The notes beneath the pieces were generated by a model, which was not told the DNA's origin, did no database searches, and saw nothing but the letters and a program-made list of their open reading frames with translations. Positions 3,132 through 3,968 of a stretch of DNA of 10,796 nt are shown here, in pieces (the stretch's first letter is position 1; every line of letters begins with the position of its first letter). The translations under genes and the position numbers were made by a program. The stretch is from a virus. Its lineage: Duplodnaviria; Heunggongvirae; Uroviricota; Caudoviricetes. The DNA lies in the IMG/VR virus record IMGVR_UViG_2690316318_000025, positions 1 to 10,796 of that record. The stretch is one strand, 5' to 3'.

Positions 3132-3221
3132 ACAATATGTACCTCCGATATACATATTACATGATTGAGATGAACCTTCAAGATACTTGTACCCTATCGG
3201 TACAAAGGTTTTAATTTCGTT
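3132..3221. promoter_or_regulatory. Divergent immunity-region control region (OR-like operators; PR-like promoter leftward to cro; PRM-like promoter rightward to cI)
   Basis: Palindrome TTGTACC-ctatc-GGTACAA at 3187..3205. Related heptamers ATGTACC (3137-3143) and ATACAT (3150-3155). Leftward promoter: -35 TTGAAG (plus 3181..3176), 16-bp spacer, -10 TAATAT (plus 3159..3154). Rightward promoter: -35 TTGTAC (3187-3192), 17-bp spacer, -10 TTTAAT (3210-3215), placing the start site at or next to the cI ATG (leaderless-type, as for lambda PRM). Confidence 0.6.
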
Positions 3222-3896
3222 ATGAAAACAGTCCATGACATCCGGCGGTCTAACGCCAGAAAACTGAGAGATGGTGTTGGCGGGAATTCTTCCTTTGCCA
3301 CCATGATTGATCGCGAGCCAACCCAGACCAGCAGGTTTATGGGAGATGGTGCTACTAAAAATATCGGTGACAGCATGGCACGGCACATCGAAAAATGTTT
3401 CGACCTGCCTGTCGGATGGCTTGATCAAGAACACCAGACAACAAACATCACAAAAAAACCTGATGTTTCAATTACTAACAAACAAATAACGTTAGTCCCT
3501 GTCATATCATGGGTACAGGCCGGAGCATGGAAAGAAGTTGGCTATTCTGAGGTTGATTTGAGCACAGCAGAAACTTATCCCTGCCCTGTACCCTGTGGCG
3601 AAATGACTTATATCTTGCGGGTGATTGGTGATTCAATGATTGATGAGTACCGCCCGGGAGACATGATTTTTGTAGATCCTGAAGTCCCTGCCTGCCACGG
3701 TGACGACGTTATTGCATTGATGCACGATACAGGCGAAACCACCTTTAAGCGGTTGATAGAAGATGGAACACAGCGTTACCTCAAAGCATTAAACCCAAAC
3801 TGGCCTGAACCTTACATTAAGATCAACGGTAATTGCTCTATAATTGGTACAGTAATTTTCTCAGGAAAACCAAGAAGATACAAAATAAAGGCCTAA
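3222..3896 (+). CDS. Phage cI-like repressor, LexA-type S24 peptidase family (autocleavable), 224 aa
   Basis: ORF 3222..3896 (+). N-terminal HTH region. C-terminal S24 hallmarks: linker VISWVQAGAW, catalytic Ser in VIGDSM, catalytic Lys in TTFKRL. Divergent from the cro-like gene. No obvious SD, consistent with a leaderless transcript. Confidence 0.9.
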   Translation: MKTVHDIRRSNARKLRDGVGGNSSFATMIDREPTQTSRFMGDGATKNIGDSMARHIEKCFDLPVGWLDQEHQTTNITKKPDVSITNKQITLVPVISWVQAGAWKEVGYSEVDLSTAETYPCPVPCGEMTYILRVIGDSMIDEYRPGDMIFVDPEVPACHGDDVIALMHDTGETTFKRLIEDGTQRYLKALNPNWPEPYIKINGNCSIIGTVIFSGKPRRYKIKA

Positions 3897-3907
3897 TCAA
3901 TATTTAT

Positions 3908-3930
3908 AACCTGCTTCGGCAGGTTTTTTT
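3908..3930 (+). terminator. Rho-independent terminator downstream of the cI-like gene
   Basis: Stem AACCTGC / GCAGGTT with loop TTCG (about 3908..3923) followed by T7 (3924..3930). Confidence 0.7.
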
Positions 3931-3934
3931 ATAC

Positions 3935-3968
3935 TTGACAATGTACCCTTGAGATACATAATGTATCT
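3935..3968 (+). promoter_or_regulatory. PL-like early-left promoter with overlapping operator palindrome
   Basis: -35 TTGACA (3935-3940), 16-17 bp spacer, -10 CATAAT/ATAATG (3957-3963). Perfect palindrome AGATACAT-A-ATGTATCT (3952..3968) overlaps the -10. Heptamer ATGTACC (3941-3947) is shared with the OR region. Confidence 0.55.

Follow-up and report, generated by a model that had tools for sequence, protein, structure and literature searches.

A cI/cro immunity switch of the SfV/e14 type with five predicted 19-bp operators in a lambdoid phage sequence

The window analyzed here is a DNA stretch of 10,796 nucleotides (nt) from a virus of the class Caudoviricetes (IMG/VR record IMGVR_UViG_2690316318_000025, positions 1 to 10,796). 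The region between 2931 and 3979 could be assigned as the immunity (cI/cro) switch of a lambdoid temperate phage, belonging to the SfV/e14 immunity type and probably working in a lambda-like manner, a reading to which we give a probability of roughly 0.88. An immunity region of this type, its leaderless repressor messenger RNA (mRNA), and its inducibility have all been published already, and the addition made by the present analysis is an explicit map of five operators backed by population data. The order along the window was cro on the minus strand, the intergenic right operator region (OR) of 90 base pairs (bp) separating it from the divergent cI on the plus strand, a terminator, and the promoter PL with the left operator region (OL) (Table 1). 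Between 2900 and 4600, the window shared 99.1% identity with phage cdtI, 98.6% with a series of Stx2c phages, and 98.2% with phage Ayreon, and further matches were to SfV and to hundreds of E. coli genomes, in which the two genes go by the names ymfK and ymfT. The switch represents the working regulatory core of a common E. coli/Shigella temperate phage family, which includes cdt- and stx2c-carrying phages.

The repeated unit of both control regions was a 19-bp site with a 7-5-7 arrangement (ATGTAyC-N5-GrTACAT), and five such sites could be placed, three at OR and two at OL. All five shared the same 7-5-7 register and were positioned on promoter elements. The search was conducted over the 10.8-kb window with the pattern ATGTACC-N5-GGTACAT, allowing up to three mismatches, and 200 shuffled sequences were used as the control. 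Six matches were obtained against 0.32 expected (approximately 19-fold enrichment), five of which fell in the control regions, and none of the 200 shuffles reached six. The sixth match (10199-10217, ATGTACC-TTTAA-GGTAATC), intergenic and near the right end, was rejected as a chance occurrence, having a poor right half in a search where one match is expected by chance. The heptamer WTGTAYC alone provided weaker evidence, with 10 matches against 4.4 expected (approximately twofold), a count reached by 4 of the 200 shuffles. OR-b was the weakest of the five sites. It overlapped OR-c by 2 bp, which suggests that occupancy of these two sites may be mutually exclusive, and the spacings between the centres of the OR sites were 33 and 17 bp.

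Table 1. Coordinates of the predicted switch elements and of further features of the window
Feature	Position	Strand	Sequence	Description
cro (YmfT/CroE homologue)	2931-3131	-		66 amino acids (aa); weak Pfam matches to YdaS_toxin and HTH_3; annotated as cro in SfV and cdtI
Predicted operator OR-a	3137-3155		ATGTACC-TCCGA-TATACAT	2 mismatches; over the end of the PR -10 and the predicted PR start; centred near +1 of PR
cro Shine-Dalgarno sequence	3142-3146	-	GGAGG	10 nt before ATG; inside OR-a; read from the sequence
Promoter PR	3154-3181	-	TTGAAG (3181-3176), 16 nt, TAATAT (3159-3154)	Predicted start at about 3147, just upstream of the cro GGAGG
Predicted operator OR-b	3170-3188		ATGAACC-TTCAA-GATACTT	3 mismatches; over the PR -35; centre at -32 of PR and -43 of PRM
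Promoter PRM	3187-3222	+	TTGTAC (3187-3192), 17 nt, TTTAAT (3210-3215)	Predicted start at the A of the cI ATG (3222)
Predicted operator OR-c	3187-3205		TTGTACC-CTATC-GGTACAA	Perfect palindrome; over the PRM -35; centre at -26 of PRM
cI repressor	3222-3896	+		224 aa; N-terminal helix-turn-helix-like domain at about 1-75; C-terminal S24 autopeptidase at 93-212
cI intrinsic terminator	3908-3932	+		7-bp stem, 4-nt loop, T run; annotated in SfV and Ayreon
Promoter PL	3935-3962	+	TTGACA (3935-3940), 16 nt, CATAAT (3957-3962)	11/12 against the consensus; predicted start at about 3969
Predicted operator OL-a	3941-3959		ATGTACC-CTTGA-GATACAT	1 mismatch; between the PL -35 and -10; centre at -19 of PL
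Predicted operator OL-b	3961-3979		ATGTATC-TAAAA-GAAACAT	3 mismatches; over the PL start; centre at about +1 of PL
Open reading frame (ORF) of 278 aa	1503-2339	-		"Immunity region" in SfV and Ayreon; "putative antirepressor" in cdtI
Stretch after the RNA motif	4270-4426	+	GCGTTGTGG to CCACAACAGCCA	Begins, like the phiV10/SPN1S tRNA-Arg, with the 5' acceptor strand of that tRNA (GCGTTGTGG); ends with CCACAACAGCCA

Natural variation of the sites was evaluated in 80 IMG/VR loci whose cI was identical over the matched segment, together with reference phages, and the distinct haplotypes obtained numbered 25 for OR and 22 for OL. Variable columns amounted to 8 of 68 in the half-sites, 17 of 25 in the 5-bp spacers, and 10 of 47 at the other positions. 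The difference between half-sites and spacers was significant by Fisher's test (p = 2.8e-7), a value in which independence is overstated because the haplotypes are related. The left half of OR-a was unchanged in all but one of the 25 haplotypes while its spacer was variable, and the e14 variant of OR-a (TGTACAT) was nearer to the consensus. The conservation of OR-b began exactly at 3170, directly after three hypervariable bases (3167-3169). Both halves of OR-c were invariant across the 25 haplotypes and its spacer occurred in four variants; in every haplotype, OR-c alone carried T in place of A at position 1 of both halves, which could serve as a signal discriminating Cro from cI. At OL-a the halves never changed, and approximately 10 spacer variants were present among the OL haplotypes. 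One natural variant of OL-b, ATGTATC-TATAG-GATACAT, was a perfect palindrome. Such conservation of half-sites together with variable spacers is the pattern predicted by binding of a dimeric helix-turn-helix protein, rather than by a hairpin or a chance motif.

A previous reading made from the sequence alone had described shared heptamers and palindromes at both control regions. These elements could all be located, with ATGTACC at 3137-3143 and 3941-3947, and the palindrome proposed at 3187-3205 was in fact the perfect 7-5-7 site OR-c. The palindrome proposed at OL (3952-3968) was also real, as a perfect 17-bp sequence (AGATACAT-A-ATGTATCT) overlapping the PL -10, but it was not the operator unit itself. 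It arises where the right half of OL-a meets the left half of OL-b, and natural variants with ATGTACC in the left half of OL-b break the palindrome while keeping both 7-5-7 sites. The sequence-only reading had missed the OR sites at 3137-3155 and 3170-3188 and the 7-5-7 register of OL (3941-3959 and 3961-3979).

The promoter hexamers that had been proposed for PR, PRM, and PL could all be placed. PR was the only minus-strand candidate in OR scoring at least 8/12, and both of its hexamers were conserved across the haplotypes. The PL hexamers were almost invariant across the 22 haplotypes, and the Ayreon record annotates a promoter at this position. The PRM -10 ended 6 nt before the cI ATG, as had been read earlier, and the seventh base after it was the A of that ATG. 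No Shine-Dalgarno sequence could be read within reach of the cI ATG. Differential RNA sequencing by Romero et al. (2014) revealed only five leaderless mRNAs in E. coli K-12, among them ymfK of e14, for which the mapped transcript start coincides with the gene's first base and the leader is 0 nt long (PMC4681348). The OR of the window was 99% identical to that of K-12 e14, and positions 3207-3252 were the same except for one base (3231) within the coding sequence. Because the promoter and start sequence equal those of e14 ymfK, position 3222 is very probably the PRM start, and the leaderless-type cI start suggested earlier is supported by the mapped leader of this near-identical homologue. The starts of PR and PL were absent from the e14 data in the supplement of the same study (PMC4681348), as expected of repressed promoters.

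The Cro protein was identical to the Cro of SfV, Ayreon, and cdtI, and K-12 YmfT differed from it only by C48Y. The cI protein showed no difference from SfV cI, a V4I difference from both K-12 YmfK and Ayreon cI, and a K221Q difference from cdtI cI. Judged by the shared V4I difference from the window, Ayreon cI is identical to K-12 YmfK. The match of cI to Peptidase_S24 (PF00717) scored 92.8 bits against a cut-off of 23.3. Its C-terminal domain aligned with that of lambda cI (E = 2e-9), which placed VQA100-G101 on the lambda cleavage site and revealed the segments GDS138M and TFK176R(L). The S24 peptidase domain noted earlier was thereby borne out, with the cleavage site and the Ser/Lys dyad present. 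No Pfam match was found in residues 1-92 of cI, and the N-terminal domain was weakly similar to SPC32H Rep (5D50, E = 7e-4) and TP901-1 CI, which makes a helix-turn-helix fold likely as judged from sequence comparison. Distant repressor homologues were sought by a word-indexed search to see whether recognition helix and operator co-vary, and the only sequences obtained were fragments and frameshifted copies of this gene.

The view that the switch is intact rather than degraded held, given the identity of both cI and Cro to the phage SfV proteins. Frameshifted, split copies of the repressor (for example, NCBI GCA_019583425.1) exist beside the same CP76, yfdP, and DUF2303 neighbours. Such copies indicate that degraded versions of the switch do occur; the present window is not among them.

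The arrangement is consistent with the following mechanism. In the lysogen, cI dimers would bind the 19-bp operators, where we infer which protein binds which site. Binding of cI at OR-a and OR-b would block PR, and binding at OL-a and OL-b would block PL. In lambda, cI at OR2 activates PRM from a position of about -43. OR-b, at the same distance from PRM, appears to be placed to stimulate this promoter, which has a weak -35. OR-c may be occupied by excess cI or by Cro, by which PRM would be turned off, either as negative autoregulation or as a Cro target. Translation of cI would use a leaderless mRNA whose first base is the A of the ATG and whose end is set by the cI terminator. Upon DNA damage, active RecA would promote self-cleavage of cI at Ala100-Gly101 by the Ser138/Lys176 dyad, and this cleavage would free PR, with cro, the cII-like gene, and the replication genes, as well as PL. 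Cooperativity between the sites and the exact start positions of PR and PL are presumed.

Inducibility of closely related switches has been reported. Ayreon carries the same switch, with an identical Cro and a cI differing at one residue, and both UV and mitomycin C induced its lysogens (PMC5764929). Although its cI equals K-12 YmfK, this phage had been obtained by plating on a host that is described as derived from K-12 (PMC5764929); either that host lacked e14 or the e14 immunity fails to exclude Ayreon. Several spacer positions differ between the OR of Ayreon and that of e14. In e14 itself, DNA damage induced genes to either side of the switch (ymfJ and intE; ymfT, ymfL, and ymfM), with an onset at approximately 50 min compared to 10 min for LexA-regulated genes, which the authors credited to a CI-like repressor (PMC11002266). 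SOS induction of e14 was also described in PMC11228462 and bioRxiv 10.1101/2020.11.19.390815. Together with the retained Ala-Gly, Ser, and Lys residues, the induction of Ayreon and the late SOS induction of the e14 genes support the earlier proposal of an SOS-inducible switch, as far as sequence and homologous systems can indicate.

Induction could alternatively depend mainly on an antirepressor of the Gifsy/SPC32H style, in which a nearby Ant-like protein sequesters the N-terminal domain of cI and the S24 domain is secondary. The best solved relative of that domain, SPC32H Rep, was crystallised with its antirepressor (5D50), and an Ash/antirepressor-annotated region with C4 and isrK RNAs was present at 1503-2339. 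However, the cI of the window has a complete S24 domain with its cleavage site and catalytic dyad, rather than being a repressor devoid of an autocleavage domain. In addition, the ant-like module belongs to the PR operon, where cro and the cII-like gene precede it, and would be transcribed only after derepression unless it had its own promoter; a promoter scan of 1200-2950 found none. This explanation is considered very improbable.

Similarly little credence can be given to direct repression of the early promoters by host LexA through weak SOS boxes, in which induction would reflect LexA cleavage and not self-cleavage of cI. Its support is that azidothymidine (AZT) induction of 17 of 22 e14 genes depended on LexA cleavage and that 13 putative weak LexA boxes were cited in e14 (PMC11228462). 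In the window, however, no CTGT-N8-ACAG sequence with up to one mismatch was found in 3100-4000, and hence no SOS box at the promoters, which favours the repressor route; the whole window contained 6 such sequences against 4.2 expected, a chance level. Dependence on lexA(Ind+) is also expected of any RecA-dependent cleavage of cI. The late onset of e14 induction relative to the LexA-regulated genes (PMC11002266) speaks against it as well, and earlier genetics placed sfiC/ymfM outside LexA control (bioRxiv 10.1101/2020.11.19.390815). The operator map thus bears on a published dispute over whether e14 is induced through LexA boxes or through a CI-like repressor, as repressor-type palindromes and no SOS box were found at the control regions.

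That the palindromes are chance or structural elements, such as a terminator hairpin at 3187-3205, and not protein-binding sites is hardly credible. A terminator scan did list 3187-3205 as terminator-like and the heptamer alone was little enriched, but the 19-bp pattern was strongly enriched and confined to the two control regions, its half-sites were kept while the spacers varied (the signature of dimer binding, where a hairpin stem would tolerate compensatory changes), and all five sites lay in one register on promoter elements.

Besides the relatedness of the haplotypes, several points weigh against the assignment of a repressor-controlled, lambda-like switch. PR and PRM each scored only 8/12 against the consensus, and neither was listed by a generic promoter scan. 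The helix-turn-helix assignment of cI is based on weak matches (E = 7e-4 to 5e-2) without a Pfam match. OR-b, with three mismatches and its overlap with OR-c, coincides with the PR -35, so that its conservation could partly reflect promoter rather than operator function. A literature search that did not extend to the SfV and e14 genome papers found no published binding data for cI or Cro on these sites. Finally, the induction of e14 was ascribed to weak LexA boxes in PMC11228462.

The PL transcript would begin with a structured RNA, a part of the region that may merit its own study. No credible ORF was present in 3970-4562, and this sequence folded more stably than its shuffles (z = -3.0). An RNA motif could be located at approximately 4002-4260 on the plus strand, with its core at 4095-4201, as the first thing transcribed from PL. 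The stretch at approximately 4002-4258 was 78-83% identical to unannotated DNA in P1/P7, phiV10, and SPN1S. The copy in P1/P7 belongs to the ban operon, where a transfer RNA (tRNA) gene, tRNA(cat), directly precedes it and ban follows, and the copies in the epsilon15-like phages phiV10 and SPN1S stand directly before tRNA-Arg(tct). An exact 19-mer from the core occurred in more than 120 IMG/VR loci, and 117 distinct variants were extracted from the collected loci. Many lambdoid phages carried the motif, as did 1833 of 5426 complete E. coli genomes (approximately a third). Among the matches listed, the only annotations over the motif were those of the neighbouring tRNA-Arg and, for a single match, of a gene for a phage tail protein. 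It adjoined a same-strand tRNA in 26 of 89 distinct variants and followed PL in 53 of the 80 loci carrying this cI.

A structure with two hairpins, a pseudoknot between a loop and downstream sequence, and a short closing helix was tested on 27 diverse sequences. Paired cells amounted to 97.9%; shuffles gave 84%, and slid controls did not exceed 49%. Seven pairs had changes on both sides, the pseudoknot pair switched between C-G and A-U, and covariation supported at least three helices in the 3' domain of the motif. A 5' hairpin from 4016 (CGGCRUAU-GGCAC-AUGYGYCG) also demonstrated G-C to A-U exchanges, for which the count is rougher. For a second 5' helix (P2), the first register tried failed to pair, and no P2 is claimed. 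No Rfam 15 match to the motif was obtained in the window or in the P7, phiV10, and SPN1S loci, and a permissive Rfam scan of 3100-4700 gave a single 22-bit noise match. Searched with a covariance model of the motif, the window contained a single copy (4111-4186, 75.8 bits), and no copy was detected in HK022, e14, or SfV. A put-like antitermination RNA as in HK022 was rejected as the identity of the PL leader on the empty result in HK022, a weak test given that the model was not built from put. No tRNA was called in the PL leader by ARAGORN. The motif resembles a mobile, non-coding cassette that would be expressed at an early stage of lytic growth. Tentatively, and with slightly less than even confidence, positions 4016 to about 4260 could be proposed as a pseudoknotted RNA of about 240 nt from an undescribed class of phage RNAs, acting early in the lytic cycle, for example with a link to tRNA function or counter-defence.

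Downstream of the motif, the stretch at 4270-4426 (Table 1) gave no tRNA call by ARAGORN and may be a tRNA remnant or replacement. A strong intrinsic terminator, with a stem at approximately 4379-4420 and a T run to approximately 4426, resembled the one found after the phiV10 tRNA. It stands between PL and yfdP, and no N-like gene was present. A long hairpin, ACAAAACAGAGAAGA ... TCTTCTCTGTTTTGT, could be seen by eye at 4427-4515 on the plus strand, just upstream of yfdP (4563-4925). The sequence at 4378-4560 was 95% identical to SfV and approximately 85% identical to Salmonella phage ST64B, and is unannotated in both.

Leftward of cro, a CII/CP76-family gene, the Ash/antirepressor-annotated region, and a DnaD/HTH_36 replication gene were found, while yfdP, a DUF2303 gene, Ead/Ea22, DUF551, an exonuclease, and a PrtN-like gene were located rightward of PL. 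This gene content indicates the early region of a lambdoid temperate phage. At gathering thresholds, Rfam analysis of the whole window revealed only C4 antisense RNA (1791-1878, 82 bits) and isrK (1903-1979, 64 bits), both outside the switch and inside the 278-aa ORF. The Pfam Phage_ASH match of this ORF (residues 117-210) fell on the same DNA as isrK and C4, an intrinsic terminator (1909-1922) lay mid-way in it, and a small ORF with a good AAGGAGG ribosome-binding site started at 1736. This long ORF could be an artefact of annotation that covers an RNA-controlled module of the P1 immI/Gifsy isrK type. A perfect CTGT-N8-ACAG sequence, CTGTGGTTACTTACAG, was observed at 2221-2236, approximately 240 nt upstream of isrK. 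It could act as a LexA box of the ant/isrK module, but the window-wide count of the motif is at the chance level and no promoter was found nearby.

In comparison with known systems, the switch resembles that of lambda in its divergent cI and cro, leaderless cI mRNA, S24 C-terminal domain, and PL downstream of cI on the same strand. The predicted operators at OR are likewise three, two overlapping PR, one of them centred near -42/-43 of PRM, and one overlapping PRM. The operators differ from those of lambda in being 19 bp long (7-5-7) with another half-site, and only two sites were found at OL. The overlap of OR-b with OR-c and the unequal centre spacings also distinguish the window from lambda, in which the OR centres are 24 and 23 bp apart. 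Furthermore, the N-terminal domain of cI was not detectably lambda-like, and the window has no rexAB between cI and PL and no N gene after PL. The best, though weak, solved relatives of cI residues 1-75 were SPC32H Rep (PDB 5D50) and TP901-1 CI. The C-terminal half of the window cI, in contrast to SPC32H Rep, is an autopeptidase of the LexA/lambda-cI type. SPC32H Rep is not known to have an S24 domain and is inactivated by an antirepressor.

The closest likeness was to SfV, with its identical cI and Cro, whose record (GenBank U82619) annotates cro, a "putative operator region", cI, and the terminator, and to K-12 e14 (ymfT/croE and ymfK/cohE), in which YmfK and YmfT are each one residue off, the OR is nearly identical, and the leaderless ymfK mRNA has been mapped. 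The Ayreon record agrees with the window in annotating the cI terminator and the promoter. PL and OL are common to e14 and the window as far as 3979, and the switch itself differs between SfV/e14 and the window by spacer polymorphisms only. Directly downstream of OL-b, e14 has ymfJ and SfV has orf33 followed by a terminator, whereas the window carries the non-coding RNA cassette. Annotation of the e14 CohE/CroE operators was found only as a "putative operator region", and the five-site map now makes them explicit and testable.

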